DNA of 64,000 nucleotides from a virus (taxonomy: Duplodnaviria; Heunggongvirae; Uroviricota; Caudoviricetes), in the IMG/VR virus record IMGVR_UViG_3300035208_001055, positions 56,494 to 120,493 of that record. The stretch is one strand, 5' to 3'. Each line of letters opens with the position of its first letter. The stretch's first letter is position 1. Position numbers and translations under genes: made by a program. The notes beneath the pieces are model-generated. The model was not told the DNA's origin. It did no database searches and was given only the letters and a program-made list of their open reading frames with translations. Of this stretch, positions 11,547 through 62,011 are shown piece after piece.

Positions 11547-11900
11547 TCAAAATACATTGTAACTCCATCCTTTGCCACGAATTGTTGCGTGCGTGACTGG
11601 CGTGCTCTCAAGATTACCATTCTTGAAGACAAGCGACACTCTCAAAAGCATCCCAATCCAATTATTGATCTGCGTTTTCTTGTCCCCCGAGAATGAATGA
11701 GTCAACACACCAAGAACAGGTTGCCGCAAACGTTGATCCGTTCCGGTGACTTCGACGACAGCCTTTTCAGGAATCGTGATTTTCAACTCGAAAATCTGAT
11801 CGCTCTCCGTCTCAATCGTTATGATTGTTCCGGCTTTCTGTTTCGTGATGTCGATGCCAACTTCACTCATTGGCATCTTCGATGTGGGTTTCGATGTCAC
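11547..11900 (-). CDS. Hypothetical protein
   Basis: 117-aa ORF. Confidence 0.3.
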   Translation of the reverse strand: MTSKPTSKMPMSEVGIDITKQKAGTIITIETESDQIFELKITIPEKAVVEVTGTDQRLRQPVLGVLTHSFSGDKKTQINNWIGMLLRVSLVFKNGNLESTPVTHATIRGKGWSYNVF

Positions 11901-12708
11901 GTTTCAACTCCTCAGTTGTAATGCTACCCGCACACCAAGCTAGGATACGTGTGGGCAGACCACTTATCGGCGGTTTCCGTCCCCACAGGTAACTAATCAT
12001 ATCAGAAATCTCGGCTTTCGTCCGGCGTGCATGACGTGGATTACGCTTCCGGGCTTGGAATAATTCGTTCTTAACCCTTTTCCGTTCTTCGGGTGGTTTT
12101 AATTTCGAGTCAAGTATTCGCTTTGCAATACTAATCACAGTGAGAGGATCAGACACCCAGGGTATCAATTCATTGAGATCAGATTGCGCGAGGCGTCCTG
12201 ACTCGAAATGTTTTTGCACCTCCACGGGCATCTGTAAAAGCAGAACGCGCCTACGCACCCACTCCATGTCACGCCTAATCTCCCGTGCAATTTCCTTAAT
12301 GCTTTCACCGTGGGGGAACAACTTCTGAATGCCTCGTGCTTCCTCAACAATGTTCAAGTCTTTCCGCTCAAGATTTTCGATGTAGTTGATTTTGTCGGCT
12401 TCAAACTTGGAAAGGTCATCCGGCATCACTTTGCACGGCACCGATGTCCAACGAAGTTGTTTTACTGCCGCCATCCGTCGAAAACCAGCAAGTAACTTGT
12501 AATTGAATCCAGGTTGCTGCGTCCAAGGTTGTATAATCAAAGGGTACATTAACCCCAAAGGATGCCCGCCATTATCTGAGATACTTTGCGCCAGTGATCT
12601 AACTGCCTCCGGTAAAAATATGTCCCGAACATTGAAACCGGAGTCTATCCAAATCTCACTGATTGGAACGAGATACGTTTTATACTGAGAGAGTTCTTCG
12701 AGCATCAA
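11863..12708 (-). CDS. ParB-like nuclease domain protein
   Basis: ParB/Srx N-terminal box YKLLAGFRRMAAVKQL (GxRR..A). 281 aa. Confidence 0.55.
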   Translation of the reverse strand: MMLEELSQYKTYLVPISEIWIDSGFNVRDIFLPEAVRSLAQSISDNGGHPLGLMYPLIIQPWTQQPGFNYKLLAGFRRMAAVKQLRWTSVPCKVMPDDLSKFEADKINYIENLERKDLNIVEEARGIQKLFPHGESIKEIAREIRRDMEWVRRRVLLLQMPVEVQKHFESGRLAQSDLNELIPWVSDPLTVISIAKRILDSKLKPPEERKRVKNELFQARKRNPRHARRTKAEISDMISYLWGRKPPISGLPTRILAWCAGSITTEELKRDIETHIEDANE

Positions 12709-13978: not shown

Positions 13979-14013
13979 TGTCGCCTCCCAGTTAAGATTT
14001 CAAGAGTTCAAAG

Positions 14014-14086
14014 TTGCGGGTACAGGACTCGAACCTGTGTGGGCGGCTTATGAGGCCGCTGAGATAGCCACTTCTCGAACCCGCAA
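14014..14086 (-). tRNA. tRNA-Met (anticodon CAT; initiator vs elongator vs Ile-lysidine not resolved)
   Basis: Cloverleaf folded by hand: acceptor TGCGGGT/ACCCGCA, anticodon stem GCGGC/GCCGC, loop CTCATAA, T-arm ACAGG-TTCGAGT-CCTGT. Confidence 0.7.
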
Positions 14087-14155
14087 TAACATCTGGCACC
14101 GCGCCACCCAAGTGAAACGGTGCCGGTACTTTTTCTACCGATGGTAGGCAAGCAG

Positions 14156-14230
14156 TCAAGGTGAGAGGACTCGAACCTCCGACCCCGTGGTCCCAGGCCA
14201 CGTGCTCTAGCCAAACTGAGCTACACCCTG
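14156..14230 (-). tRNA. tRNA-Pro (anticodon TGG)
   Basis: Acceptor CAGGGTG/CACCTTG (one G.U), D-arm GCTC-AGTTTGGCTA-GAGC, anticodon stem CGTGG/CCACG, loop CCTGGGA (unusual C33), T-arm GGAGG-TTCGAGT-CCTCT. Confidence 0.65.
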
Positions 14231-14236
14231 CGCAAG

Positions 14237-14309
14237 AGCCGGTGGAGGGAATCGGACCCCCGACAAGCAGTTTACAAAACTGCGGCTCTGCCAACTGAGC
14301 TACACCGGC
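14237..14309 (-). tRNA. tRNA-Thr (anticodon TGT)
   Basis: Acceptor GCCGGTG/CACCGGC, D-arm GCTC-AGTTGGCA-GAGC, anticodon stem GCAGT/ACTGC, loop TTTGTAA. The T-loop TCCGATT is atypical (C at 55). Confidence 0.6.
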
Positions 14310-14906
14310 TTTTATTTTCTGCCAGAGATAATACTTGGTGAGCAATTTGCGATAAAGGCTTCCAGGCGATTCTCTGACATTTCCTGACGTAATCAACCCA
14401 GACCGTTCAATGGTGTTACCGACATACTGACTGCAAAAGATGCCGCGAACCTCGTAACCCTTCCACCAACCTCGCAGCATGTATGGACGGCCGAGTTGAC
14501 TCTCTGCATACTTCTTCATCTCCGCCAACTGTTTCACGGTGTAGGGTTTCCTTGGACTCATTGAAAACCAAGAAAAATCACGTCGCTTCTGGCTCTGTGT
14601 TTGCAACTCTTTTTCGTACTCGTCCAACCGTATCTTTCGCACGCATGGAGGGACTGCCTCATAGACCCACGGTTCATCATTGCCATCATACAACACAATT
14701 GCTGCGTGCGTGATGTCGCTCCCGGTATTTCTAAGAATTGGCCCAACTAAAAGACCGCCACGCCAAAAGATCACCGAACCATCTCGCGTATTCGTCGGAG
14801 ACGCCGGAGACGGAGGTGACGGTGGTTGTATCTTGTCGCCTGGAATCGGGGTCAACATTGTCAATGCCACCGCCACAGCCAACAAACCGGCAAAGTAATA
14901 TCGCAT
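14310..14906 (-). CDS. Secreted protein (signal peptide; possible permuted papain-like domain); true 3' end unclear
   Basis: N-terminus MRYYFAGLLAVAVALTMLTPIPG (signal peptide). The frame stays open through the three tRNA genes to 13992, so the real stop cannot be placed; I gave the tRNA-free part. Confidence 0.35.
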
Positions 14907-14921
14907 AACATACCTCCTATG

Positions 14922-14995
14922 TTGGACTACTAGGACTCGAACCTAGAACCTCGGCGGTATCAGCGTCGCGCTCTAACCACTTGAGCTATAGTCCA
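14922..14995 (-). tRNA. tRNA-Ile (anticodon GAT)
   Basis: Acceptor TGGACTA/TAGTCCA, D-arm GCTC-AAGTGGTTA-GAGC, anticodon loop CTGATAC (stem has one A.C mismatch), T-arm CTAGG-TTCGAGT-CCTAG. Confidence 0.6.
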
Positions 14996-15237: not shown

Positions 15238-15643
15238 GCGAGGCTCCTTGACGTAAACGAGACTCCTGCATCGTGGCGAAAATAATATCGTCGATGTCAG
15301 GCAATTCTCTGCCTTCCAAATCGAGATTCCGCACAATGAGTTGTCGTATCTCATCGGTCGCCGACGTAAAGGCGGTGGCCAACTTTTCACGAATCCCTTC
15401 AACATCGCGTGCCAGAATTTCCACCTTCTGACAGTCCCCTAGAGCCGTTTGGAAAGCAGGGTGGAGATTGTCGTTGGCGGTATGATTCGCCGTCGCCACA
15501 TCCAACGTGCGCCGTTGTGCTCTCGCATCGCTACGAGCCGCCCGTCCCAATTCATCCAACTTCTCAAGGGCGTCCCTTCCGTTCCAAACCAACGGTAACG
15601 AGTTCCACAGGTCATAGAGACCTGTTTCAATCTTCGTGTTCAT
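15230..15643 (-). CDS. Hypothetical protein
   Basis: 137-aa ORF. Confidence 0.3.
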   Translation of the reverse strand: MNTKIETGLYDLWNSLPLVWNGRDALEKLDELGRAARSDARAQRRTLDVATANHTANDNLHPAFQTALGDCQKVEILARDVEGIREKLATAFTSATDEIRQLIVRNLDLEGRELPDIDDIIFATMQESRLRQGASHG

Positions 15644-16266
15644 CGTGTAAAGACTCCTACAAAAGCCTTGGCTCCGTTCGACCAGTAATCGTTACAGACT
15701 GGTATCCCAAACTTCTTGACACGCAAGCCAAGGAGGCCGTTCAAAAGTAACTCCGGCGTCAATACGTGCGGATGGCACGTGTCGGCCGGTATCCACAGCC
15801 ACTCAAATATCCGCAAGACGCCACCGTCCTCCTTGATATGCTGCCTCGCATTCGCCAGCACCTTCAACGGGTCTTGAACATGCTGAAGTACATTGTAAAT
15901 CCAAACCTCGTCATAGAGCCCACCGGAAGGCAACTCTTCACCAGGCGCACGGACAAAACTGATGTCGTGACGACGATAGCGCCGATAGACGGAGGCAGGC
16001 CAGTTAATCGGGTCAACAACAACGAGCATGTGTGCATTATAACAACGCAACGTCATCGACACGGGGCCTCCGCCGACATCAAGTACAGACTTGCCACGCA
16101 TGTCGAGTTCGCCACCGCTATCGCCGTAGTCGTCAAACACTCCCATCTCGCGTCCGTACATCTCTTGTTTGACAAACTCTCCCCATGCACGCATCCCGAG
16201 GCAGTTACCCCAATAACCAGCCTCACCGGCCTGGGCATCTTCCCATTGTGCTTCATTCGTCGTCAT
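15640..16266 (-). CDS. Class I SAM-dependent methyltransferase
   Basis: Motif I VLDVGGGPV, and an acidic post-I strand LVVVDP. Start moved to MTTNEAQ (ATG 16264-16266); the low-complexity M/T/K stretch upstream is the antisense of the acidic-repeat gene. Confidence 0.55.
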   Translation of the reverse strand: MTTNEAQWEDAQAGEAGYWGNCLGMRAWGEFVKQEMYGREMGVFDDYGDSGGELDMRGKSVLDVGGGPVSMTLRCYNAHMLVVVDPINWPASVYRRYRRHDISFVRAPGEELPSGGLYDEVWIYNVLQHVQDPLKVLANARQHIKEDGGVLRIFEWLWIPADTCHPHVLTPELLLNGLLGLRVKKFGIPVCNDYWSNGAKAFVGVFTR

Positions 16267-16507
16267 CGTCTTCGTCCTCGTCTTCGTCTTCGTCTTCGTC
16301 GTCCCAGTCGTCGATGTCGTCGTCTTCATCTTCGTCCTCGAAGTCTTCGTCATCGTCGTCCCAGTCGTCATCTTCGTCCTCGAAGTCTTCATCATCGTCA
16401 TCCCAGTCCTCGTCGTCGAACTCGTCGAGATCATCTTCGAGGTCATCGTCAAGATCATCGTCATCATCAATGAACGGGTCGTTCAAATTCAGATCGTCAG
16501 CACTCAT
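16253..16507 (-). CDS. Hyper-acidic protein (about 70% Asp/Glu): candidate DNA-mimic / anti-restriction protein
   Basis: MSADDLNLNDPFIDDDDDLDDDLEDDLDEFDDEDWDDDDEDFEDEDDDWDDDDEDFEDEDEDDDIDDWDDEDEDEDEDEDDDDE. Strong SD (AAGGAGAG) 7-13 nt upstream of the ATG. Stop lies 8 nt before the methyltransferase ATG. Confidence 0.5.
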   Translation of the reverse strand: MSADDLNLNDPFIDDDDDLDDDLEDDLDEFDDEDWDDDDEDFEDEDDDWDDDDEDFEDEDEDDDIDDWDDEDEDEDEDEDDDDE

Positions 16508-22445: not shown

Positions 22446-24425
22446 CTAAACAACGACATCGACGGTCACAACGCCGTCCTCAACGCCTTTCGGGTTCTCC
22501 CAGTCAATGTCGCCCATAACCTCGCCCATCGTCAACAACTCAAGGCGGCGGTTTTCCTTAATCACTTCCAAGACTTTCTCATCACTTGGCAAGTGGATCA
22601 AATCAACGATCAAGACGCCTCGGTTCATATCCGCGCCAATGCGGTGGATACGATCTTCTGACTGTGTGCGGCTTTCCGGTTTGTACGTATTCGACCAGTA
22701 GACCGCCATGCGCGATTCCGTCAACGTGAAACTCGATCCGCCAGATTCAGGATGGGCAACCCACGCTACGCGAGGATGCTTCACAGTATCAGCCCAATAA
22801 TCCAAGGGCTTTTCATCTGTGACGATTTTATTCTCGTGTGTGATTGCTTGGAATGCAGTGCCATCGCAACGCACAACATCCCAGCCCTCTTCCTGGCACA
22901 GTCGCACGCACCGATCAACAGCCGCCGTAAATCCGGCGAAAATCACGATACGTCCTTGCTCATCGTTCTCCGCCAACAATTCCTTTAGTGCTGCGTCTTT
23001 TGGACAGGGCACCTCGCGGGTTTTCTTCACGAACTTCGGAACCTCACACGTCCCGCGACACGCAGGGCAGACTACCTCCGTCTTTCGCAGCCGTGCAGCA
23101 ATATCGTCTTGCAACAAGTCAATCGAGCGGTAGGTACAAGTTGGATTTTCCGGGTCGCTCCATTCCGACACCTTTCCCTCGACGCAATGTGTGCAGCGAG
23201 TCGTCCCTTCCTTGACCTCGTAATACTGAAAACCGTCGCTCAACTCACGCAGTAAGGTGGCTCCTGTCAAAGCATTCTGCGCCGACTGAGCAATCGCTTG
23301 TGCGACTCGAACAATACTCGCACTCGGTTTACAGTAAACACGACGGTAACGTTTTTCAGGAAGGTCGAGACAGTCCTTTTTGTGGCGAACAATGGCGAGT
23401 CCATTGAGTCGTTTTTCAACGAGTGCCACTTCATTGATACTCTTTTCCCACGGATGGTAGTCAGTTGGATCGGCGCACTGATCCATGTGATGATTCTGAT
23501 GGTCCTCATATTCACCACACTGCTTACACTTCAACTCGTCGTCACGCCACCCCTCTAATTTCTTGATGGTAACGCCACTCTCGAACGTATGTGGCGATGT
23601 GAATGCAAGTCGCTCGCGGAAGGCTTTATCGCTGCCCTCGGCAAGGAAGCCCGGCCATGCAATCTCAGCCTGCGCCCACCAGTCAACAGGACTTTTAGGC
23701 GACGGCGATCCCGACATGAGAATCACATAGCCATCCGTCACCCCGTATTTTTCACGAATCAAGTCCGCAAGTCGTGCGGCTGCCTTTGTACGTTGCGTTG
23801 TCCATGTCTTCAATTTCGACGATTCATCAAAGATAACTCCGTTAGGAAGAAAGTCGCCTGGCTTCCACTCATCCATTCGTCGGACCAAGCCGTCAAATGT
23901 CATAAACTCCACGCGGATTCGATCAACAGGGAACCCCCAGATCAAAAATTCACGTTGGATATTTTGAAGCGAAGTCTTAGGTCCGACCCACCACCATTCA
24001 ATCTGTCCTGACCGTTCGATGACTTCTTGGGCTGCAAGTGTCTTACCAAGTCCCATCTCAGCGGCGAAGATTTGATAGTGATATGTCAACCCACCGTCGG
24101 CTAAGTCTCGTTGATGCTGCATCAACGGGCGTGCATACTCAAAGTGCTGAATCGGTTGATCGAAATGCGCGTAGGTATTCTCACCAGCCATGAAACGAAT
24201 TGACTGCCAATTTCGGTGACAATCTTCAACAGACCAAACCTTCAGCGGCTTGTCTTCGTCGAAGCCATGCCATTTAGCCCCTCGCATTGCTTTAATGGCG
24301 TCCTTGAAGCAAAAGTCACTTTTCACAAACCAGATTCGACCGTCCTTGACCTCGATGATAACGTCCTGTTGACGTTTTCGACCAAGGTTATCACGCTTAA
24401 ACCAAGTGATCTTCTGCAATGCCAT
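22446..24425 (-). CDS. SNF2-family (SF2) helicase with Zn-finger inserts
   Basis: Motif I EMGLGKT, motif II VIFDESS, motif VI SEDRIHRIG; CKQCGEY...C and CTHC...CPACRGTC. Confidence 0.7.
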   Translation of the reverse strand: MALQKITWFKRDNLGRKRQQDVIIEVKDGRIWFVKSDFCFKDAIKAMRGAKWHGFDEDKPLKVWSVEDCHRNWQSIRFMAGENTYAHFDQPIQHFEYARPLMQHQRDLADGGLTYHYQIFAAEMGLGKTLAAQEVIERSGQIEWWWVGPKTSLQNIQREFLIWGFPVDRIRVEFMTFDGLVRRMDEWKPGDFLPNGVIFDESSKLKTWTTQRTKAAARLADLIREKYGVTDGYVILMSGSPSPKSPVDWWAQAEIAWPGFLAEGSDKAFRERLAFTSPHTFESGVTIKKLEGWRDDELKCKQCGEYEDHQNHHMDQCADPTDYHPWEKSINEVALVEKRLNGLAIVRHKKDCLDLPEKRYRRVYCKPSASIVRVAQAIAQSAQNALTGATLLRELSDGFQYYEVKEGTTRCTHCVEGKVSEWSDPENPTCTYRSIDLLQDDIAARLRKTEVVCPACRGTCEVPKFVKKTREVPCPKDAALKELLAENDEQGRIVIFAGFTAAVDRCVRLCQEEGWDVVRCDGTAFQAITHENKIVTDEKPLDYWADTVKHPRVAWVAHPESGGSSFTLTESRMAVYWSNTYKPESRTQSEDRIHRIGADMNRGVLIVDLIHLPSDEKVLEVIKENRRLELLTMGEVMGDIDWENPKGVEDGVVTVDVVV

Positions 24426-24952
24426 CAGTGACCTCGTTTATCTTCTAACAGGTACGTCACCTGATCGGGAGCCGGACGTTGCCGATAGTCCGTCCACGGA
24501 TTGACGCCTTCTTCTTGAAAAAGTCCCTGTATTTTGTTGAACAAAAAACGAACAGACGAATCAACATCGAGACTCGACCCTGCGATCACTGCTATCTTCC
24601 ACTGTAGTAACGTGCCTGTTACGACAAGTAGCCACACATTCCGCATTGTCGTCTCGACTGATACGAACGGCATATTCGATGCACACTCCATAATCGGCAA
24701 CACATCGACGCCATCGACGACCATCAACAAACTATACGACACATGCGCCAGCAATTTTGGACTCAATTCAACCTTGGCCTTCGGGTCCCGCATTGCCGCT
24801 AGGTAACTAATAAACCGGGCTGCATCGGACATTGTACGACCCGACGCATCCGCAGCGGCAGACGGACTATGGCCCAGCACCCTCAACGCTATACCAAGAA
24901 AGGTTGAGGCGTCCACTTCAGTCCGACAGATGATAATAGCTTCTGGTTTCAT
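24425..24952 (-). CDS. Hypothetical protein
   Basis: Start moved to the internal Met (MKPEAIIICRTE) because the upstream part of the ORF is the translated tRNA-like gene. Confidence 0.3.
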   Translation of the reverse strand: MKPEAIIICRTEVDASTFLGIALRVLGHSPSAAADASGRTMSDAARFISYLAAMRDPKAKVELSPKLLAHVSYSLLMVVDGVDVLPIMECASNMPFVSVETTMRNVWLLVVTGTLLQWKIAVIAGSSLDVDSSVRFLFNKIQGLFQEEGVNPWTDYRQRPAPDQVTYLLEDKRGH

Positions 24953-24972
24953 TTTGATTGTCGTACCGTTAA

Positions 24973-25052
24973 AAAGAACGCTGCCGGGACTCGAACCCGG
25001 AACCCGCAATGGCAATCTGCGCCCGTAAACTGGCCGGTGGTGCCCGCCCAGC
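24973..25052 (-). tRNA. tRNA-like gene with atypical D-region (candidate anticodon TGC), followed by a T-run
   Basis: Acceptor GACGCTG/CAGCGTT, canonical T-arm CCGGG-TTCGAGT-CCCGG, anticodon-like stem CGCAG/TTGCG with loop ATTGCCA. D-region is about 8 nt too long and does not fold canonically. TTTTT follows the 3' end. Confidence 0.35.
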
Positions 25053-25112
25053 GTCCATATCATCCCTCTATACTATCTAACGGTCAAAACTGACCGAATT
25101 TCCACAAAATTC

Positions 25113-25853
25113 TTAACGGATTCTGTCCGTATTCGTGTTTCCGTTATCTGGAACCACGGCGGCTCCCTCGGATTTCACCTTCAAGAACTTGTCGATTTGG
25201 GCCAAAACCTCAACCTTGGGAGGTAGATTTGAGAACGGCGTCGAACACTTCACGGCAACCGGAACATGCCAAGAAAACTTGCTCCTGACAAGACGACTCT
25301 TGAGAGTCACGGGCAGCGGTCCATGCACTTCCATTCCCGTCGTGTTCTCGCCACGTGCCGTCGCGCTGTCGATGTCAGCTTGCGAACACGGGAGAAAGGC
25401 AAAAAGTCGCTTCGATTCGATGCGCGAACTCTTTGTCCCGCAGAAGAACTCCAAGAATTGTCCTGTACTGCGCTCATACACGAGGAAACTCGTGCCATAC
25501 ATGCAGCCACTTTCCTTCTCGGCCGATTGTTTCGCAATTCGGTCAAACTCGGGATTGTGGACATCGTAAATCGTAACGATGTTTGCCTTGTCCTTCAAAT
25601 CCACGGCCTTGGGACGGCGGGCCAGCGGCAGAATATCCACAGAGTCGCCCAAGTCCGTAACCTCTTCCTTCGTGACCGGGATACCATAGTTACCCGGAGG
25701 AATCAACCGGGCGTCAACCATCTCACCCTTCGTGAAAAGTTGAAGTCGTGGAAGAAAATCAGACGACTTTGCAATCGCATCAAAGTCGGCGTTCGAGCCG
25801 ATTTGTGTCGAAGGCAATTGTTCAAAACCAACAGGAACCAAAGAGTCAGACAT
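25113..25853 (-). CDS. Hypothetical protein
   Basis: About 247-aa ORF starting at the internal Met (MSDSLVPVG). Confidence 0.3.
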   Translation of the reverse strand: MSDSLVPVGFEQLPSTQIGSNADFDAIAKSSDFLPRLQLFTKGEMVDARLIPPGNYGIPVTKEEVTDLGDSVDILPLARRPKAVDLKDKANIVTIYDVHNPEFDRIAKQSAEKESGCMYGTSFLVYERSTGQFLEFFCGTKSSRIESKRLFAFLPCSQADIDSATARGENTTGMEVHGPLPVTLKSRLVRSKFSWHVPVAVKCSTPFSNLPPKVEVLAQIDKFLKVKSEGAAVVPDNGNTNTDRIR

Positions 25854-25904
25854 GAAAGTGTCCTCCAAAAGAAAACTGTAAAACACAAAACCAATCCATT
25901 AGAA

Positions 25905-26810
25905 CTACTCCTGCTTCTTGCGATCACGGTGCTGTTTAAGTACCTGACCACGCATACGTTGTCGAATCCGCGTTCTGAATTTTTCCACGCTGTCAGAGTC
26001 TAAGTGTACCACCCATCGTAAGGCGCAAAGCCAACCGTCCAACGGGGTCGTACAATTCAAACTAGCAAGCCACAGTGGACCACTTTGTGGTCTCTCCAAT
26101 TCTGGTAACAACTCTCGCAGGCCCCGAAGTCGCGGTTGCGCGTCCACCTCGCCCGCGTAAAATCTCTCTAACCGCCCATCCAACTTCGCCGTGCGATATT
26201 GTCGTAAAACTGTCTGTACGAGAGCGCGAAATTCTTTCAGTGGGAGTGTCTTTGCGTCCGGTAGATATTGACCCCACATTGTATACGGTAGTCGTGACAG
26301 CCAGTATGCGGCCTCTAAAGACATCTCCCCAAGATCGGCGGCGCGTCGGTATACCTTATACCTCGCCAACTTTGCCAATCCCAGCATCTTACGAATCCAA
26401 TATGGGTTCTTATGCAGTAGTTGGCATAACTCTGCTTGGCTCATCCCTTCCTTCTCGTGGAGAATCTTACGTATCTGCCGTGCAAAATCGGATGGTGCTG
26501 TTTGGAGTCGTTGTGCATTAGTTACAATCTGTATAGCCAACACCTCGTAATTTGTCAAATCACGAATCGCACAATGTATCTCGGTCTTCTGGGCATCTCT
26601 CGAAGCTGCAACCCGACACCTCCCATCGACCACTTCAAACATTCCCGATGTCTTTTGCGATGGACGCACACAAATACCATTCAATACGCCATACTTTGCA
26701 ATTGAATCTCGTAGTTCTAGGTACTCGATAGTCGTGCGATCCACCGGTCGTAACACAACTGGGGGGTCGATTAACTTCGTCAACGGTATGGCACGGAAGT
26801 CATCTGACAT
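25905..26810 (-). CDS. ParB-like protein (ParB/Srx N-domain + HTH)
   Basis: EVVDGRCRVAASRDA (GxRR..A box) and an HTH MSQAELCQLLHKNPYWIRKMLGLAKL. Confidence 0.55.
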   Translation of the reverse strand: MSDDFRAIPLTKLIDPPVVLRPVDRTTIEYLELRDSIAKYGVLNGICVRPSQKTSGMFEVVDGRCRVAASRDAQKTEIHCAIRDLTNYEVLAIQIVTNAQRLQTAPSDFARQIRKILHEKEGMSQAELCQLLHKNPYWIRKMLGLAKLARYKVYRRAADLGEMSLEAAYWLSRLPYTMWGQYLPDAKTLPLKEFRALVQTVLRQYRTAKLDGRLERFYAGEVDAQPRLRGLRELLPELERPQSGPLWLASLNCTTPLDGWLCALRWVVHLDSDSVEKFRTRIRQRMRGQVLKQHRDRKKQE

Positions 26811-26832
26811 AAGGCGGCGCGCCGGGTTTTAC

Positions 26833-26947
26833 CTCTCCTACCATACTGTCGGTTTCGAGGGGTGGTTTGTCCCATAAAATTCTCCAAAATTTTTAAGAAA
26901 AAGATTGGGACAAATCTACCCTCGAAACCGACAGTATGGTAGGAGAG
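26833..26947. promoter_or_regulatory. 29-bp perfect inverted repeat enclosing an AT-rich core with a nested 9-bp inverted repeat (candidate origin / divergent operator)
   Basis: Left arm 26833-26861 CTCTCCTACCATACTGTCGGTTTCGAGGG; right arm 26919-26947 is its exact reverse complement. Inner TTTGTCCCA (26866-26874) / TGGGACAAA (26906-26914) flank a 31-bp AT-rich centre. Confidence 0.5.
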
Positions 26948-26972
26948 ACGCACTATTTCCGAGAGAAACCAC

Positions 26973-29657
26973 ATGCCAACAGTTTCCCAAGCATTTCGGC
27001 GCTTCCTGGCGTCCGTTCAGAACCAGCTTCCCGGCGCAGACTTAATTGCCCGGTATCTACAGTACGGTCCTGAAAATCTGGAAACACAAGTCAATACCTG
27101 TTCCGACGATGGCGACCCTGTTGAGGGTCGGCGTCATACTTGGACCGATGGCGAATCGACTTGGTTTACGATCCGCATTCCAAAGAATGCGATGCTCACG
27201 CCCGAATGGGAAGACTATGAACTTCACTGGGCACCCGAGGAACACGCCGATGCTATCGGCTCCACGGGATGGGATTGGAAAAAACTACGGTCACGGTGGG
27301 TCGGATTCGACGTGGATGATCTTATATCACATGCCAAGGGTATTGGTGTCACAGACGAAGAAATGACTCACATCAAAGAAGTTGTACAGCAACTTCCGTA
27401 TGTTGAGGCTCGCCGCAGCACGAGAGGCGGTGGTCTGCACCTCTATGTCTTATTCGACGACGAAGGTGTTCCCACAGCCAACCACACCGAACATGCCGCT
27501 CTTGCCCGCTGCATTCTAGGCATGATGACCGCTGAAGTCGGTTTCGACTTCGCTGCTGCCGTTGATTGTTGTGGTGGCAATATGTGGATTTGGAGCCGAC
27601 GAACCACCACTGAGAATCGCGGATTGGAATTGATTAAACCGTCTACCAAACGGCTCAGTGTCAAGGACTTGCCCAGTAATTGGCGGGATCACATCGCCGT
27701 CGTTACCCGTCAAGCCACAAAAATCAAGTTACAGGGTGTGACCGGCGATACGCTGAGTCCTTTTGATGAGTTGACGGCTTCCCGCCGACTCGTCCCACTT
27801 GACGAGAAACACAAACTTGCCATTGAATTATTGATGGACACCGGGTTCTCGACAATCTGGGTCCCTGACCATCATCTCTTACAGACGCACACCAAGGCCC
27901 TTGAAAAAGTTGCCGACGACGCGCAAGCCCGGTCCAAATTAGGATTCGTTGGTCACTTCCAAACAAACAGCCCCGGAAAGAATCCAGGGGAGCCAAACTG
28001 CTTCCTCTTTCCAACACTGAATGGCGGGTGGCGAGTATACCGCTTCTCATTGGGCATAGCTGAAGCTGAGACATGGGCACAAGACGGTGCGGGTTGGACT
28101 ACCTGTTATTTCAACAGACTCCCTGATCTTGATACCGCATGTCGTGCTTACGGTGGTCTTCCTACCGAAGGAAAACCAAACTACATGTTTCCCGATAGTG
28201 AGTCGGCTGTAAAAGCGGCTCTGGCACTAGGTCAAAAACTCGACATCCCCGACGACTTAAAAGGACGACCCGTTGAACTTCGTGTTCACAATGGTTTCCT
28301 AATCACCTATCTCAAGAAAAGCAAAGACGACCCAGAAACCATCAAAGGTTGGAATCTGAAAAAAGGTCAGTGGATTCAGGATTCAAAAAAGAAACTGACA
28401 CCAGACGACAAAAGTGATCTCGGGGATAATGACTACGACAATGTTGTTCGTTCACTGCGGTCATTAAATGGTGAAATAGTCGGATGGACGTATCAATCGA
28501 CTCAAGGCGATTGGAATGAAACAAACGCAGGCACCATCAAAATGATCCTTCAAGGAAAAGGACAAGCAAAAACCGAGGCCGAAGTTATCATGGGGAAGTG
28601 TGCCGTTCATCCGTGGCAGATCATGTGTCTTCCGTTCGCCGATGAGTTCCCAGGAGGACGCAGATGGAACCGTCAAGCACCGCAACTCAAGTACAAACCT
28701 GCGCTCACTGAGGATGAGACCCAAGCAGCCCACCCGCACTGGGATTTAATTCTCAACCATGTTGGCACCGAATTGACACCGGCGCTGAAAGATTCTCACT
28801 GGGCGCAAAAATATGGCGTCCTCACAGGCGGGCAATATCTTCTTCTTTGGATTGCGGCTGCTTTCCGCGAACCGCTTCAACACACACCTTATTTATTCCT
28901 TCATGGCAACGAAAATTGTGGTAAGTCCATTTTTTATGAGGCCATCGCCTTACTTGTCACTAAGGGCGTTGTTAGTGCGAATAAAGCACTGACAACCCCT
29001 GGCGATTTCAACGGTGAACTCGCTGGGGCCGTTTTCTGTTATGTTGAAGAGATTGATCTTTCCCACCACAAAGTCGCGCTCCCACGCATCAAGGAATATG
29101 TCATGGCAGAGACACTTCCAATCCGACAGATGCGTATGGACCTCTATCATCAACCAAACACGACACACTGGATGCACATGGCGAATTTCCTCGAATACTG
29201 TCCAATTTTCAGAGGTGATAGTCGTATTACCGCGATCCGTGTTCCCGACCTCTTGAAAGAGCAGGAGATTCCCAAAGGTCAATTTCTTGAACTCTTGAAA
29301 AAAGAAGCCCCACAATTTCTTCACACGATCTTTAACGTGTCGATACCGCCATCGCCTACTCGGTTGAGAGTCCCGATTATCGAGACGCAAAGCAAACTAG
29401 CTGCCATCGAACACAACCAAACATTCCTCGAAGAATTTATTGCAACCTACTGCAAAGAGGAACAAGGTGCTCGTACACCGTTGCCAATCTTCTACGAGGC
29501 ATTCCGAAAATGGCTGCCCGATGACTCCATACGTGCAGAATGGACACTGCCACGAATTTGCTCTTGTATAAAAGGCACAACTCTTTCCAGAGGTAAGAGT
29601 CAACGGTATCTCGACAATCTAGTCTTGTGTTACCCAAAAGAAGAAGGGAAGCAATGA
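26973..29657 (+). CDS. Primase-polymerase (AEP) fused to D5/SF3-type NTPase helicase (replication initiator)
   Basis: AEP motif I VGFDVDD, motif II STRGGGLHLYVLF, and a C-terminal Walker A LHGNENCGKS. 894 aa. Confidence 0.75.
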   Translation: MPTVSQAFRRFLASVQNQLPGADLIARYLQYGPENLETQVNTCSDDGDPVEGRRHTWTDGESTWFTIRIPKNAMLTPEWEDYELHWAPEEHADAIGSTGWDWKKLRSRWVGFDVDDLISHAKGIGVTDEEMTHIKEVVQQLPYVEARRSTRGGGLHLYVLFDDEGVPTANHTEHAALARCILGMMTAEVGFDFAAAVDCCGGNMWIWSRRTTTENRGLELIKPSTKRLSVKDLPSNWRDHIAVVTRQATKIKLQGVTGDTLSPFDELTASRRLVPLDEKHKLAIELLMDTGFSTIWVPDHHLLQTHTKALEKVADDAQARSKLGFVGHFQTNSPGKNPGEPNCFLFPTLNGGWRVYRFSLGIAEAETWAQDGAGWTTCYFNRLPDLDTACRAYGGLPTEGKPNYMFPDSESAVKAALALGQKLDIPDDLKGRPVELRVHNGFLITYLKKSKDDPETIKGWNLKKGQWIQDSKKKLTPDDKSDLGDNDYDNVVRSLRSLNGEIVGWTYQSTQGDWNETNAGTIKMILQGKGQAKTEAEVIMGKCAVHPWQIMCLPFADEFPGGRRWNRQAPQLKYKPALTEDETQAAHPHWDLILNHVGTELTPALKDSHWAQKYGVLTGGQYLLLWIAAAFREPLQHTPYLFLHGNENCGKSIFYEAIALLVTKGVVSANKALTTPGDFNGELAGAVFCYVEEIDLSHHKVALPRIKEYVMAETLPIRQMRMDLYHQPNTTHWMHMANFLEYCPIFRGDSRITAIRVPDLLKEQEIPKGQFLELLKKEAPQFLHTIFNVSIPPSPTRLRVPIIETQSKLAAIEHNQTFLEEFIATYCKEEQGARTPLPIFYEAFRKWLPDDSIRAEWTLPRICSCIKGTTLSRGKSQRYLDNLVLCYPKEEGKQ

Positions 29658-29822
29658 ACATCCGAATTTACCAATACGATGGTCAAGTTTCAAACACCCC
29701 AATGCTCCACGCTACGTGCGTTGCGGAATTTGATATTGCTGCAAGAGATTGGAAACGCCAGCGGCGACAATTGCTACACGATCACGAGGGTGACTTCTAC
29801 ACAGTCAATGAGAGGAAAGAAA

Positions 29823-30335
29823 ATGTCACGCAACTTCTATGCAGTCGGTGATGTCAACAGTACAAAACGCGGGTCGGGAGCCAGAGCGAATCACGGGAAG
29901 GTCTCTTTGACATTGGTGCCCTTCCACGTGCTCGCAGGCGTTGCTCGTGTCTTCATGGGCGGCAAATTAAAATACGCTGCGTGGAATTGGGCGAAAGGGA
30001 TGCCCTGGTCAACGGCAACGGACTGCCTCTTTCGCCACCTCTTCAAATGGTGGTATCTCGGTGAAGACATCGACCCGGAGAGTGGTGAGCATCACTTGGA
30101 TCATGCTATCTGCAATCTTCTAATGCTGCGGCACTATCTCACCGCCTATAAGGAAGGCGATGATCGTCCTCCGACCGACATCACGGGATTTAATGATGCA
30201 CTTGTCGATTTCACTCGCTGTTTTGACGAGGAAGAATACCTACGACGCAACCCGTCGATCAAGCAACTCATTGAAGAACGCAGCAAACCGAGACCGAAAA
30301 CAAAGGCAACGAAGAAAACGAAAAAGGCAAAATGA
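29823..30335 (+). CDS. Phage dNTP-pool protein, dATP/dGTP diphosphohydrolase N-domain-like (tentative)
   Basis: LVPFHVLAGVARVFMGGKLKYAAWNWAKGMPWS...LGEDIDPESGEHHLDHAICNLLMLRHY. I recall this pattern from a phage family but could not check it. Start at the ATG with a GAGG SD. Confidence 0.3.
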   Translation: MSRNFYAVGDVNSTKRGSGARANHGKVSLTLVPFHVLAGVARVFMGGKLKYAAWNWAKGMPWSTATDCLFRHLFKWWYLGEDIDPESGEHHLDHAICNLLMLRHYLTAYKEGDDRPPTDITGFNDALVDFTRCFDEEEYLRRNPSIKQLIEERSKPRPKTKATKKTKKAK

Positions 30336-30952
30336 TGAGTACCATCTACCCCGGCTTCACACATCTCAGCGGCAATCTCCTTGCGGCCATCGACTTCGAG
30401 ACCACGGGACGCCGACCGGGGTACAGTGAGATCATCCAAATTGCCATTCAACCCTTGAATGAGCATCTGCAACCGAACCCAGATGTCCCACCTTTCTACC
30501 ACAACATTCGACCCGAGTATCCTGAACGCTGTGAAAAGGGCGCAGGCTTTGTCCACGGAATTGACATGGATATGTTGTTGCTCCACGCTCCGAGTCAGGA
30601 ACGTGTTCAGGAGTTATTGATTGAGTGGATTGGAAGATTAGAACTTCCACAAAACAAGGTTATCGTACCGTTAGCCCATAATTGGGCGTTCGAGTCGTCG
30701 TTTCTCAAAGGTTGGCTCGGCCCTGATTTGACTGACCAACTATTCCACAGTCATGGCCGCGATTCCATGCTGTTAGCCATCTCGCTCAATGACCGTGCCT
30801 TCTTTCGAGGAGAACAGTTGCCCTTCTCAAAAGTCAGTCTGCCTTACCTGTGCAAACAACTTGGCATCCCGCACGACCACGCACACGATGCGCTCGACGA
30901 CTGTAAGGCCACGGCCGAACTCTATCGAACCCTTCTGATGTATGGACTCTAA
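30332..30952 (+). CDS. DEDDh 3'-5' exonuclease (DnaQ-like)
   Basis: Exo I AAIDFETTG, Exo II LAHNWAFE, Exo III HDHAHDALDD. Confidence 0.7.
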   Translation: MMSTIYPGFTHLSGNLLAAIDFETTGRRPGYSEIIQIAIQPLNEHLQPNPDVPPFYHNIRPEYPERCEKGAGFVHGIDMDMLLLHAPSQERVQELLIEWIGRLELPQNKVIVPLAHNWAFESSFLKGWLGPDLTDQLFHSHGRDSMLLAISLNDRAFFRGEQLPFSKVSLPYLCKQLGIPHDHAHDALDDCKATAELYRTLLMYGL

Positions 30953-31301
30953 CCCCCTAATTGAACAGGTTCTCGATACTCTGCCGCCCTTCGTCGAAGG
31001 CCGCGACCGGCGTTTTCATTTCGAGTCAGACGGCGCACTCGTCTACGAACGCGAGGAAGGCGATTGGGAGCCTCCGAGACATATAGAGGGTTTCGAGACG
31101 GACCCAACCAATCCCTGGCGTCTACAGTCACACTGGGACGCCTGCCCGGCCCGCCTGTACACCGCCGTCCGGTTCCCCGAGTGCGGTTGCATTGGCATCA
31201 TTGCCCGGTGCAATGAACCAGACGCCAACTTCACGAAACAAGTCAAATTAGAAGCGTGTAAACAGTGTCCCTTGTATCGAGAGGTGCGACATGGCATGTG
31301 A
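30942..31301 (+). CDS. Cys-rich small protein (paralog A)
   Basis: EGFETDPTNPWRLQSHWDACP...CGCIGIIARC...LEACKQCP; paralogous to the next ORF. Confidence 0.35.
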   Translation: MDSNPLIEQVLDTLPPFVEGRDRRFHFESDGALVYEREEGDWEPPRHIEGFETDPTNPWRLQSHWDACPARLYTAVRFPECGCIGIIARCNEPDANFTKQVKLEACKQCPLYREVRHGM

Positions 31302-31713
31302 TGACTGCCCCGAATACATTGTAGCCGCCGAGACCACGGGCGTGGCGATTCTCGTCTACTCCGGTGGTCCTCCGACCGCCATCTTCGAGAGCGTCAAGTA
31401 TGCTCTTTCCGGTGACGATCCGAAGGTCATTCGGAAATGGTCGAAGCCAACCGTTCACAAAGATGGTTCAATCGAGTATGCTCCAAATGAAGCTGAGCCG
31501 CCCGAGATCGAGGGGTACTCTCGTGACCCCAACAATCCCAGACGGCTCAAACCTTGCTGGCCACCTTGCGCGTGGCGTACTCTCCGCGTTTGGCGTGCGG
31601 ATAATGGTTCAGTGAAAATCACTTGTGGATGCGTGAATCCAACATCTGGTTACAAGCCGCATGAAGATGTCACGCTTGAAAACTGTAAGACCTGTGCTCG
31701 GCGCACCATCTAA
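31291..31713 (+). CDS. Cys-rich small protein (paralog B)
   Basis: EGYSRDPNNPRRLKPCWPPC...CGCVNPTSG...LENCKTCARR; shares the motif order with paralog A. Confidence 0.35.
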   Translation: MACDDCPEYIVAAETTGVAILVYSGGPPTAIFESVKYALSGDDPKVIRKWSKPTVHKDGSIEYAPNEAEPPEIEGYSRDPNNPRRLKPCWPPCAWRTLRVWRADNGSVKITCGCVNPTSGYKPHEDVTLENCKTCARRTI

Positions 31714-32285
31714 TTCTGGGCGACCGTAGATAATCCACTTCGATGGCCGTTGTCGTTCGTTACTAATTTGAACACCTTGCAATCTGCAAAGTCCACAAGT
31801 TTGCAACGCGAAACAAATACGCCAAATTGACGCAACTCTCTCCTTGTCGCTGCGGTCAATAAGTCATTCAACTTATCGGCCGCAATCATGTCAAGCAAGT
31901 CTTGTAGTGTGTGCTGTGCAATCACACTTACGACGGCTGCCTGTGTGATGTCATTGATCGTCGTATCGACATCCCAGTTTACGCGCCCGATGGCGTGAAC
32001 AACATCGCGTATCCGATAGACTACGACTGTTCCCACCACAACTTTCTTGTTGTCTCGCGTAGTCAAAACTTGTGTCGGTAGATTGAGCGTCTGTCGTGCC
32101 GTGACGATTACCTCAACCTCTGTGACAAGTGGCCAATACACATGGAGTCCAGCCAACATCGGCTTGACTTTGTGGCCATGACGCCACTTCACACCGCCGT
32201 GCGTTGCTCTAACAATCAAGACTCGCGGTATGAACCGCAAGATCGCTTCAAAAATCTGACCTAACCAAGCAAACGCCGTCTCCAT
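31710..32285 (-). CDS. SPFH/Band-7 domain protein
   Basis: QTLNLPTQVLTTRDNKKVVVGTVVVYRIRDVVHA matches the SPFH core (q.i.TkDn..v.vd.vv.yri.d). Confidence 0.45.
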   Translation of the reverse strand: METAFAWLGQIFEAILRFIPRVLIVRATHGGVKWRHGHKVKPMLAGLHVYWPLVTEVEVIVTARQTLNLPTQVLTTRDNKKVVVGTVVVYRIRDVVHAIGRVNWDVDTTINDITQAAVVSVIAQHTLQDLLDMIAADKLNDLLTAATRRELRQFGVFVSRCKLVDFADCKVFKLVTNDNGHRSGLSTVAQN

Positions 32286-32318
32286 AACTCACCTCGCTTT
32301 GTTTGAGACAGAAGACAC

Positions 32319-32400
32319 GGTGCCAAATTAGGCACCACGTCTTTGTTCATTTGACCTACGGTGCCAAATTAGGCACCACGTCTTTGTTCATTTGACCTAC
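32319..32400. repeat. Two exact tandem copies of a 41-bp unit, each containing a 6-bp-stem palindrome
   Basis: GGTGCCAAATTAGGCACCACGTCTTTGTTCATTTGACCTAC x2 (32319-32359, 32360-32400). GGTGCC/GGCACC is an internal inverted repeat. Confidence 0.6.
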
Positions 32401-32585
32401 CGTGACCCGCGATGACGGGGCAACTTGCGAAGAGTCTTCGCCAAATTGACCTGCCGTTGGGTCTGAAGAGTTATACCTACCGGCGGATTATCAATGTAAG
32501 CCGCCACCGACTTCCCTGCCGCCTTTGCCTTCCGTGTCAACGCCCCTGGATGCTGAATAGCACCTTGTATCCACTTCTTTGCCAT
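32397..32585 (-). CDS. Hypothetical small basic protein
   Basis: 62-aa ORF just upstream of the tandem repeat. Confidence 0.3.
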   Translation of the reverse strand: MAKKWIQGAIQHPGALTRKAKAAGKSVAAYIDNPPVGITLQTQRQVNLAKTLRKLPRHRGSR

Positions 32586-37523: not shown

Positions 37524-38618
37524 CTACAATCGAATTGGAGGCATGATGTTCAACTGTAGTTCAGTTGTACTGAGTGCCTTTCCAAGTCGTTCGAGATATT
37601 CGCCCGAGCCATCGGGAGGTGTTGCGGTAATTTCACCGGCTGTCGTTTCACTCAAAAAGTAAATCGAGCCAGCCGACAACCCGCCAGTTGTTCCAGCCAC
37701 AGCGTCCCACTGGGTCGTGGTCGCCGTCAACACACCACCAAAACGAACGTTCCCACTCTCAGTTGTCGGAATTGACACATCAGAGACAAGTCCCAACACC
37801 TCAGTCGTCCCCACGGCATCAGCCTTGGCTTTGTCAATGTGTCCATTAGACTTGACATAAACCGGAGCGCAAATCACAATCGAACCGGCATTGTCATTTA
37901 CCTTGGCAACGTCGTCAACTCCGCTGGCACCTGTTGGTCCGGTAGGTCCAGTAGGTCCGGTAGCCCCATCTGGACCTGTCGGGCCGGTGGCCCCATCCGG
38001 GCCTGTTGGGCCTGTGGCTCCATCTGGTCCTGTTGGGCCTGTGGCTCCGTCTGGTCCTGTTGGGCCAGTGGCCCCAGTTTCACCCTGCGGACCTGTGGGG
38101 CCAGTCGCACCGTCCGGTCCTGTCGGGCCAGTGGCACCGTCTGGGCCTGTCGCCCCGTCCGGGCCTGTCGGGCCAGTGGCCCCATCTGGACCTGTCGGGC
38201 CAGTGGCCCCGTCTGGGCCGGTGGGACCTGTTGCCCCAGCGGGACCAGTTGGGCCAGTGGCCCCGGTCTCGCCCTGCGGCCCTGTGGGGCCAGTAGCCCC
38301 ATCCGGTCCTGTTGGGCCGGTGGCACCGTCCGGGCCTGTCGCCCCGTCCGGGCCTGTCGGGCCAGTGGCCCCATCCGGGCCGGTGGGACCTGTCGCCCCA
38401 TCTGGACCAGTTGGGCCGGTGGCCCCGGCGGGACCTGTTGGGCCAGTGGCCCCGGTCTCGCCCTGCGGCCCTGTGGGGCCAGTAGCCCCGTATGCCGGGT
38501 CAATGAAGTCCCCGTCCTGAATCCTCTCAATAAGCCCGTCAGTACCGAGCACCAGCGGTTTCTTTAACGCCATCTTAGCACCCTTTCTCTTAAAGACGAA
38601 TCGGTTCTTCAACCTCAA
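37524..38618 (-). CDS. Collagen-like triple-helix repeat protein (fiber component)
   Basis: About 70 uninterrupted G-X-Y triplets ([10 protein letters not shown]...). C-terminal globular domain ends ...[16 protein letters not shown]...PIRL. Confidence 0.7.
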
Positions 38619-56536: not shown

Positions 56537-57745
<1,209 letters not shown>

Positions 57746-61510: not shown

Positions 61511-61787
61511 GGCGGATTGCTGTTTGTCTCTCCTCGCGGACCCCAATAATTGCGCCTAGACGTGCGTGCAATCGTTTCAATTGCTGAATCGGGTCGCCAG
61601 GAAGATCAAGAACAGTGTACCGAAACAACAACTCCAACTGACTGCCACACGACACCATCGCAGCCTTCCACAGCATCTCGCCTTCGGCTGCGCATGTAAT
61701 TGACTCAAATGTCCGGGCAACCGGTGTTGGCAATTCGTCATCAGGGCAATTTCGACATCTTCGCTTTGACTTGAATCGCACTGCCAT
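61503..61787 (-). CDS. Hypothetical protein (possible small terminase subunit or Zn-finger protein)
   Basis: 94 aa, CRNCP motif; its stop overlaps the terminase start. Confidence 0.25.
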   Translation of the reverse strand: MAVRFKSKRRCRNCPDDELPTPVARTFESITCAAEGEMLWKAAMVSCGSQLELLFRYTVLDLPGDPIQQLKRLHARLGAIIGVREERQTAIRHE

Positions 61788-62011
61788 TGTTACGCCTCAG
61801 AACTCAAGAAGCAAAGGTTGTAGGTTGCAATGATTGGAGAGTAGAGGAACCGGTTCGCAACAGCCAAACAGGAGAGAAGTACATCGCCACAAAGAACGTC
61901 GCCAGCGACTTCATCGCGCTACCTACAACCCTTGCTTCTTTAGTTCTCGAAACACTCTCATGGAAGAGTATATCGAGAACCAGCCTCGCTACGAGGCTAG
62001 TTCAGATTTCG

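Follow-up and report, generated by a model that had tools for sequence, protein, structure and literature searches.

An inverted repeat at the junction of two diverging replication operons in an uncultured tailed phage: candidate twin outward-facing promoter modules

What is a long inverted repeat doing in the short gap from which two replication operons of an uncultured tailed phage diverge? The DNA analysed here is a stretch of 64,000 nt from the IMG/VR virus record IMGVR_UViG_3300035208_001055 (hereafter the window). Its only clear strand switch is a gap of 162 nt between a ParB-like gene on the minus strand and a P4/D5-type primase-helicase gene on the plus strand, and the order of the genes to the left and right of this gap indicates that it heads two diverging replication operons. 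A sequence-only reading of the window had located nested perfect inverted repeats at this strand switch, a position that we confirm, and had proposed either a replication origin, composed of initiator sites and a DNA unwinding element, or a dual operator controlling both modules. The explanation we favour, to which we give about an even chance, is that the repeat consists of twin outward-facing promoter/operator modules that are kept alike by selection on two sequence blocks and by concerted evolution.

The repeat fills the gap, its outer arm ends lying 22 nt from the ATG of the ParB-like gene and 25 nt from that of the primase gene. A repeat finder returned 26833-26874 and 26906-26947 as one inverted repeat with arms of 42 nt, of which 39 positions are complementary, and a spacer of 31 nt; the sole break in arm pairing is a 4-nt block, GTGG (26862-26865) versus TCTA (26915-26918). 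Everything that the sequence-only reading had stated about the 29-bp perfect part (26833-26861 / 26919-26947) and the 57 bp enclosed by it holds, and when up to three mismatches are allowed this 29-nt sequence occurs exactly twice in the window, a number reached in 0 of 100 shuffles. The inner 9-mers that had been taken for a second, nested repeat are present as well (TTTGTCCCA at 26866-26874 and TGGGACAAA at 26906-26914), but by itself this pair is within chance (0.78 expected; at least two in 20 of 100 shuffles), and the structure is better described as a single 42-nt repeat. With an ungapped score of 30 it is the strongest inverted repeat of the 64 kb, the runner-up scoring 19 and the maxima of five window shuffles lying between 11 and 13. 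As single-stranded DNA the repeat folds with -50.9 kcal/mol, compared to -17.8 ± 3.0 kcal/mol in shuffles (z = -11). With 84% A+T the spacer (26875-26905) exceeds every other 31-mer of the window, the next one having 81%; at the scale of 60-100 nt the A+T content of this region is unremarkable. An assembly artefact is ruled out since L088, a close relative from another sample, carries the same structure. The repeat is thus real, and it is biologically meaningful.

We compared the junction across 87 loci encoding primase homologues (35-65% identical) and 12 further loci obtained by exact-protein look-ups. Gene order is conserved, with a helicase, orf212, orf257 and, in part of the loci, the ParB-like gene leftward, and the primase, in part of the loci a diphosphohydrolase, and an exonuclease rightward. 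Of 56 non-identical junctions preceding the primase gene, 39 have an inverted repeat that scores at least 14 when spacers of up to 450 nt are allowed, compared to 3 of 277 control windows of the same size; for a score of at least 18 the numbers are 28 of the 56 junctions and none of the 277 controls. With spacers of up to 160 nt the counts for a score of at least 14 were 21 of 54 non-identical junctions versus 2 of 333 equally sized control windows taken from these loci, and loci that seemed to lack a repeat turned out to have one with a spacer of 229-389 nt. The arm sequences of distant phages are unrelated, and an exact search for the arm in viral contigs gave no match. Arms are 14-95 nt long in the relatives and lie 16 to about 440 nt apart, and the A+T content of the spacers ranges from 54 to 85%, so that neither length nor composition of the spacer is conserved. 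What the arms track is the starts of the genes: for the 35 repeats scoring at least 16, with spacers of 16-382 nt, the outer arm ends lie a median of 41 nt (left) and 66 nt (right) from the nearest start codon. L032, in which 1.8 kb separate the primase gene from the strand switch, has its repeat at the latter. A ParB-like homologue occupies the same position in most relatives but is missing in L004, L023, L025 and L029, all of which have the repeat nonetheless, demonstrating that it is not a ParB site. The arms are placed as two units, each belonging to one operon, and not as a pair at fixed distance or a hairpin.

The comparison with L088 shows which parts of the arms are held constant. The primases of both phages are 98% identical in protein and 89.4% identical in DNA, with 27.9% of the third codon positions differing. 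Against this background the outer 20 nt of the two arms (26928-26947 on the right) have 0 differences in 40 positions and the primase leader (26948-26972) has 0 in 25, whereas the inner arms differ at 4 of 22 positions on the left and 7 of 22 on the right, which looks near-neutral, and the spacer differs at 15 of 31. Three of the substitutions between the window and L088 are mirrored across the arms (T>A, C>T and C>T on the left; A>T, G>A and G>A on the right), where 0.42 would be expected (P about 0.009). The inner GGnACAAA-type block described below (block A) has a single change relative to L088, which is mirrored in the opposite arm. The arms of L088 are perfect over the 42 positions, with 50 nt at 94% overall. 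This pattern of differences, together with the mirrored substitutions, indicates that the outer arm is under purifying selection and that the inner copies drift together. Another pair of relatives, L090 and L091, is identical and so carries no information on polymorphism.

Alignment of 22 outward-reading arms from 11 close-clade phages, the window included, revealed a bipartite motif with an invariant GG and an invariant TAT. Read from the inside out, the arms contain A/T tracts, often phased as TTTTCnGGATTTT, then the GGnACAAA block (block A), about 17-22 nt, a hexamer with the TAT block (block B), and a purine run (GGAGAG) with which arm identity ends. The TAT block opens the hexamers TATGGT in the window and TATTAT, TATATT and TACTAT in ten related phages. 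Mismatches between the two arms of one phage fall between the blocks (in L037, L089 and L090 as well as in the 4-nt block of the window), and arm identity stops 5-12 nt past the -10-like hexamer. In L092, L094, L096 and L097 the GGAGG that terminates the left arm precedes the ATG by 6-12 nt, a position like that of a Shine-Dalgarno sequence, and on the right side the relatives have a separate GGAGT about 9 nt before the ATG of the primase gene. Both blocks are kept in phages whose primases are just 63-66% identical to that of the window. Arms that match within a phage yet differ between phages would be explained by purifying selection on the blocks in combination with concerted evolution between the arms.

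Based on these patterns we infer that each arm is a promoter module. The repeat would then be two mirror-image copies of one cis-regulatory module, arranged back to back and pointing outward, a module being a core promoter plus any operator overlapping it. The right arm (26906-26947, plus strand) is the proposed promoter/operator module of the rightward operon and would drive the genes for the primase-helicase, the diphosphohydrolase acting on deoxynucleoside triphosphates, and the exonuclease; it comprises block A (TGGGACAAA, 26906-26914), the -10-like hexamer TATGGT (26935-26940) and a predicted start near 26947, and is followed by the primase leader (26948-26972) with a Shine-Dalgarno-like GAGAG at 26961-26965. 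The left arm (26833-26874), which on the minus strand has the same 42-nt sequence, would likewise be the module of the long leftward operon, driving the genes for the ParB-like protein, the gp32-like single-stranded DNA-binding protein, the helicase and those beyond. Its block A (TGGGACAAA on the minus strand, GGnACAAA-type) lies at 26866-26874, and its outer 20 nt (26833-26852), which read CCGACAGTATGGTAGGAGAG on the minus strand, hold the -10-like TATGGT at 26840-26845 (ACCATA on the plus strand), the predicted start being near 26833. The 31-nt A+T-rich spacer with its A/T tracts could serve both promoters as a common upstream region. The functional blocks would be held by purifying selection and the arms homogenised by concerted evolution, that is by gene conversion or template switching. 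The suggestion of a dual operator in the sequence-only reading comes close to this, with each arm as the cis-regulatory unit of one of the diverging operons.

Several findings are in line with promoters at this place. As only 22 and 25 nt separate the repeat from the two start codons, and the window has no other clear strand switch, both promoters must lie inside the repeat. The arms stand upstream of the first gene of an operon with a short leader (22 and 25 nt here; family medians of 41 and 66 nt), and each contains a -10 hexamer of the form TAnnnT (TATGGT) upstream of the gene. Across the family, the outer 22 nt of the arms contain such -10-like hexamers more often than expected, in 13 of 32 independent repeats versus 12.9% of random 26-mers (P = 8e-5).

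Other observations weigh against the promoter reading. The controls for the enrichment of -10-like hexamers were mostly coding DNA. The -35-like element, GGGACA (4 of 6 matches to TTGACA), is separated from TATGGT by 22 nt in both the window and L088, the canonical distance being 16-18 nt; in other relatives the spacing is 17-21 nt, and L037, L094 and L098 have an extended -10 element (TGn) instead. A consensus scanner called no sigma-70 promoter inside the repeat, and a scan of the distant relatives with a -35/-10 matrix did not favour the outward strand. A strand test with the -10 hexamer only was unbiased as well (17 outward versus 14 inward, P = 0.8), although this test is weak, given the near-palindromic nature of TA-rich hexamers. 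Elsewhere in the 64 kb the arm motif is missing, and a search upstream of other window genes found the bipartite motif in no intergenic gap; the module is thus not a reiterated phage promoter. Finally, the identity of the arms between the blocks exceeds what a promoter needs and requires gene conversion or a bound factor as its cause.

As to the factor that might read the module, inspection of block A by eye in the alignments led us to reject a sigma-54 element, as the window lacks GG-N10-GC, and an element of the extracytoplasmic function (ECF) type is only loosely compatible. A literature search for comparable phage promoter pairs and for promoter motifs of Planctomycetota returned nothing useful. 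The window encodes a protein of 264 aa (6326-7120, minus strand) with weak, near-full-length matches to the sigma-70 family (TIGR02937, E = 2.8e-7; SigH-like) that remain below the curated cut-offs. By these matches it may be a phage sigma factor, and we saw no sign that it reads the arms.

Near the arms lies a further element, the G+C-rich palindrome GGCGGCGCGCCGGG (26813-26826, core GGCGCGCC at 26816-26823) in the leader of the ParB-like gene. The core occurs three times in the whole window. The palindrome or its relatives are present in the window (26813-26826) and at the junctions of L037, L088, L089, L092, L094 and L096-L099, and in the loci of ten close-clade relatives the hexamers CGCGCC/GGCGCG reach about 8 times their density elsewhere within the 300 nt that precede the primase gene. 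Their positions vary relative to the arms, and in L092, L094, L096 and L097 they lie inside both arms. Judged from this distribution, the palindrome may be the site of a separate regulator.

Could the arms instead be, primarily, the sites of a sequence-specific regulator of phage or host that switches both operons, with the core promoters partly overlapping? We consider this possible but improbable. Regulator and site would co-evolve as in immunity regions, and the arms would diverge between phages for this reason; indeed, the arms of distant phages are unrelated in sequence, close relatives show paired changes, arm identity spans more positions than RNA polymerase reads, and an additional GC palindrome is enriched at the junction. 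Moreover, relatives reside within contigs as large as 2.6 Mb and in assemblies that carry the name Planctomycetota, suggesting that some of them are prophages, which need repression. However, no candidate regulator gene is linked to the junction, as the ParB-like gene is dispensable and the gene next to it encodes a gp32-like OB fold and not a helix-turn-helix, and there is no integrase or repressor among the window proteins tested. Retention of blocks A and B at 63-66% primase identity also fits the general transcription machinery better than a fast-evolving specificity pair. An element that acts through its structure, i.e. a hairpin or cruciform, a single-stranded initiation signal for the primase, or an RNA hairpin formed upon read-through, has very little probability in our view. 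The predicted hairpin is very stable, as given above, and the paired substitutions keep complementarity, but spacers in relatives reach hundreds of nucleotides, the arm mismatches are grouped in one segment without compensation, and it is sequence blocks and not pairing alone that are conserved across phages; single arms yield no consensus RNA fold, and a scan with Rfam gathering thresholds gave only the four tRNAs of the window and no match for the repeat. The bare presence of an inverted repeat is all that speaks for a bidirectional terminator, a ParB centromere (parS), an invertible promoter switch or a transposon remnant, explanations that we regard as barely plausible. The terminator had been dismissed in the sequence-only reading, correctly; the genes diverge, the loop has 31 nt and T runs are missing, and a terminator scanner called none. 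A parS site was rejected as TGTTTCACGTGAAACA has no match in the window at up to three mismatches and the repeat persists without the ParB-like gene. The orientation of the spacer is the same in L088, the flanking proteins tested include no recombinase, and a 31-bp segment is too short to invert. A transposon or MITE remnant is contradicted by the single locus and by the flanks GGGTTTTAC and ACGCACTAT, which are no target-site duplication.

The origin, which had been the headline proposal for this site, deserves closer consideration. Here the arms would load a phage initiator in opposite orientations and the A+T-rich spacer would melt, possibly aided by negative supercoiling from divergent transcription, the initiator being the SF3 primase-helicase or a host factor. 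The form suits an origin: no other 31-mer of the window is as A+T-rich as the one enclosed by the inverted repeat, and the repeat adjoins a primase-helicase gene. Members of the family do have origin-like features at this junction. L035 has five DnaA-box-like 9-mers in 67 nt just upstream of the primase gene (4902-4968; about 1.6 expected in the whole locus), three of which are perfect TTATCCACA, in both orientations and oriC-like, and such boxes are also found in L080 and L082. The iteron-like sequence TGATTTGATTT does not occur in the window and is restricted to a distant subclade, where each locus has 1-4 copies, inverted or direct, which lie near the primase start and almost all around this junction (L011, L013, L015, L019, L021, L031, L032, L033 and others). 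In L012 the 237-nt spacer between 55-nt arms contains tandem repeats, CTCTATATCTCTCT three times and AAGGCTTTGTCGCGG twice (309-355 and 387-417). At the window's own junction the picture is different. GC skew is negative both to the left (about -0.12 to -0.16) and to the right (about -0.11 to -0.14) and merely weakens over the plus-strand genes, and cumulative skew is monotonic over the 64 kb without an extremum at 26.9 kb; phage skew often follows transcription. There are two copies of the arm or half-site only, further copies being absent from the 64 kb, no iterons, tandem or direct repeats at the junction, and no DnaA box within about 1 kb of it. Arms spaced by 16 to about 440 nt, next to gene starts and around spacers of 54-85% A+T do not fit a fixed loading geometry. 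Skew, half-site number and geometry across relatives thus leave the combination of initiator sites and unwinding element without support, and we find it doubtful that the arms load an initiator. We dropped a DnaA-box reading of block A, which reaches at most 6 of 9 matches, and likewise a signal from the density of GATTT/AAATC, whose excess at the junction is just 2-fold and confounded by A+T, with a single copy in the window. More doubtful still is the specific version in which two SF3-type primase-helicases load oppositely on the arms and the spacer is opened through underwinding by divergent transcription. To judge from the motifs found, the junction may house the origin in some lineages, and the arms themselves do not behave like initiator sites. 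As lineage-specific repeats (DnaA boxes, TGATTTGATTT) gather there, the junction is the first place to look for the origin of this family.

If the twin-promoter reading is correct, an uncultured tailed-phage family uses mirror-image copies of a single promoter module to start its two replication operons. The repeat would also be a clean natural example of concerted evolution in cis-regulatory DNA, with copies that are alike within a genome and drift between genomes, and would give a sequence handle on promoters of Planctomycetota, a phylum with poorly characterised transcription signals. The practical value is modest and lies in marking where early or replication transcription units would begin, at the predicted starts 26947 and 26833. 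The origin reading, if true, would make the junction a phage counterpart of the core origin of SV40 and papillomavirus, merged with the promoters of the replication genes.

In the λ PR/PRM region with OR, a back-to-back divergent promoter/operator region heads early or replication operons of a phage. The junction described here resembles it in that a short intergenic region with cis elements of dyad symmetry serves two diverging operons, and, as in regions of the λ type, close relatives are near-identical in the flanks and differ in the control sequences. In contrast to OR, which is a set of 17-bp operators, there are two near-identical arms of 42 nt (14-95 nt in relatives), and the junction departs from λ-type regions in having no known repressor, a non-canonical -35 spacing and arms that evolve in concert. 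Core origins of viruses with SF3 helicases are bound by SV40 large T antigen at site II or by papillomavirus E1 at its sites. With these the repeat shares inverted arms resembling initiator sites next to an A+T-rich stretch and an adjacent gene for an SF3-type (D5/P4-like) helicase, but it has no short reiterated motifs, its arm spacing varies from 16 to about 440 nt, and its arms track gene starts. The ori and crr of phage P4 are bound by the α primase-helicase through reiterated octamers. The neighbouring protein does match the C-terminal model of the P4 primase family, weakly and below the cut-off, whereas the window's junction has no iterons or direct repeats and only two inverted copies. 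Origins activated by transcription include λ ori with pR, the primary origin of T7, and oriC flanked by the gidA and mioC promoters. Here, too, an A+T-rich stretch lies next to putative promoters, whose divergent activity would underwind the spacer; there are, however, no initiator boxes and no skew support, and the spacer is conserved neither in length nor in composition. In bidirectional promoters based on the symmetry of the -10 element (Warman et al. 2021, as summarised in PMC10268837; also PMC12825309), a pseudo-symmetrical sequence drives divergent transcription; one -10 region is shared and, according to PMC10268837, the starts are usually 18 bp apart. The repeat is similar to these in its pseudo-symmetrical sequence and in the divergent transcription predicted for it, and differs by its two separate full modules with predicted starts about 114 bp apart, and up to several hundred bp apart in relatives. 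It differs from known symmetric bidirectional promoters and from classical operator clusters, and is not a new kind of system.

Nearly all genes of the window are on the minus strand, the only substantial plus-strand cluster being the short operon at 26973-31713, which the primase-helicase gene heads and which further encodes a dATP/dGTP diphosphohydrolase-like protein, a DnaQ-like exonuclease and two proteins of unknown function. The assignments of both flanking genes made in the sequence-only reading were largely borne out. The gene for the ParB_N-like protein (25905-26810, minus strand, 301 aa), which heads the long leftward replication operon, has matches to ParB_N (Pfam, E = 6.8e-8), to ParB-like families of PHROG and, above the cut-off, to TIGR00180 (E = 2e-16), and is followed leftward by a 212-aa unknown and a 659-aa helicase. 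ParB_N is the only Pfam domain matched by this protein; a second ParB-family gene of the window (11863-12708, minus strand) has both the ParB_N and the ParB helix-turn-helix domains. The primase-helicase gene (26973-29657, plus strand, 894 aa), the start codon of which is backed by homologues beginning with ATGCC, has a C-terminal D5/P4-type SF3 helicase region and matches DUF5906 (Pfam, E = 1e-9), PHROG 'DNA primase' and, below the cut-off of the model, the C-terminal model of P4-family primases TIGR01613 (E = 2.7e-7). The 'prim-pol' domain assigned to its N-terminus could not be confirmed, as residues 1-600 gave no Pfam or PDB sequence match, and the protein has no DNA-binding domain recognisable by sequence. 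Directly after the primase gene, at 29679-30335 (plus strand), lies the gene for the protein with the N-terminal domain of dATP/dGTP diphosphohydrolases (E = 3e-28), whose place is taken in L089 by a deoxynucleotide monophosphate kinase (5879-6496). No PurZ-like protein was found among the subset of window open reading frames (ORFs) that were scanned, so a diaminopurine genome is not indicated.

The window carries typical genes of a tailed phage, encoding a large terminase, a portal, a P22-type coat protein, a tape measure protein, a family A DNA polymerase, four tRNAs and a ligase. Megablast of 24000-30000 against records of cultured phages gave no near-identical DNA, and the closest cultured phages match just 14-17% of the primase at 27-29% identity. 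Assemblies bearing the label Thermoguttaceae or Planctomycetota contain homologues of the primase and of the 257-aa protein, in some cases on contigs of megabase size, and Planctomycetota are the probable hosts.

Repeats of other kinds are present elsewhere in the window. The second-best inverted repeat (61799-61825 / 61921-61947; arms of 27 nt with two mismatches, spacer of 95 nt) lies among uncertain small ORFs just upstream of the large terminase gene (59840-61546, minus strand) and could relate to packaging or to the start of a late operon. Between the tail genes and an SPFH/Band 7 gene (31710-32285, minus strand), a 41-nt unit is repeated 2.1 times with 97% identity (32317-32404), each unit holding the hairpin GGTGCC-TAATTT-GGCACC, which looks like duplicated terminator-like or regulatory hairpins. 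A protein with Ro60/TROVE and vWA domains (Pfam, E = 1.7e-66 and 6e-42) is encoded at 2513-4201 (minus strand). Ro proteins of bacteria and phages usually have a Y RNA nearby; none was detected near this gene with Rfam at gathering thresholds. The four tRNA genes (Met, Pro, Thr, Ile) lie at 14013-14995 (minus strand), and as three of them overlap a listed ORF of 304 aa (13992-14906), this ORF is probably not a gene. Repeats of the TCGTCT type at 16257-16470 correspond to the acidic low-complexity N-terminal end of an ORF with a methyltransferase domain (15640-16470, minus strand). Long arrays with periods of 9 and 27 nt at 37963-38489 and 56627-57535 encode collagen-like Gly-X-Y repeats in two proteins of the structural region (minus-strand ORFs 37524-38618 and 56537-57745).

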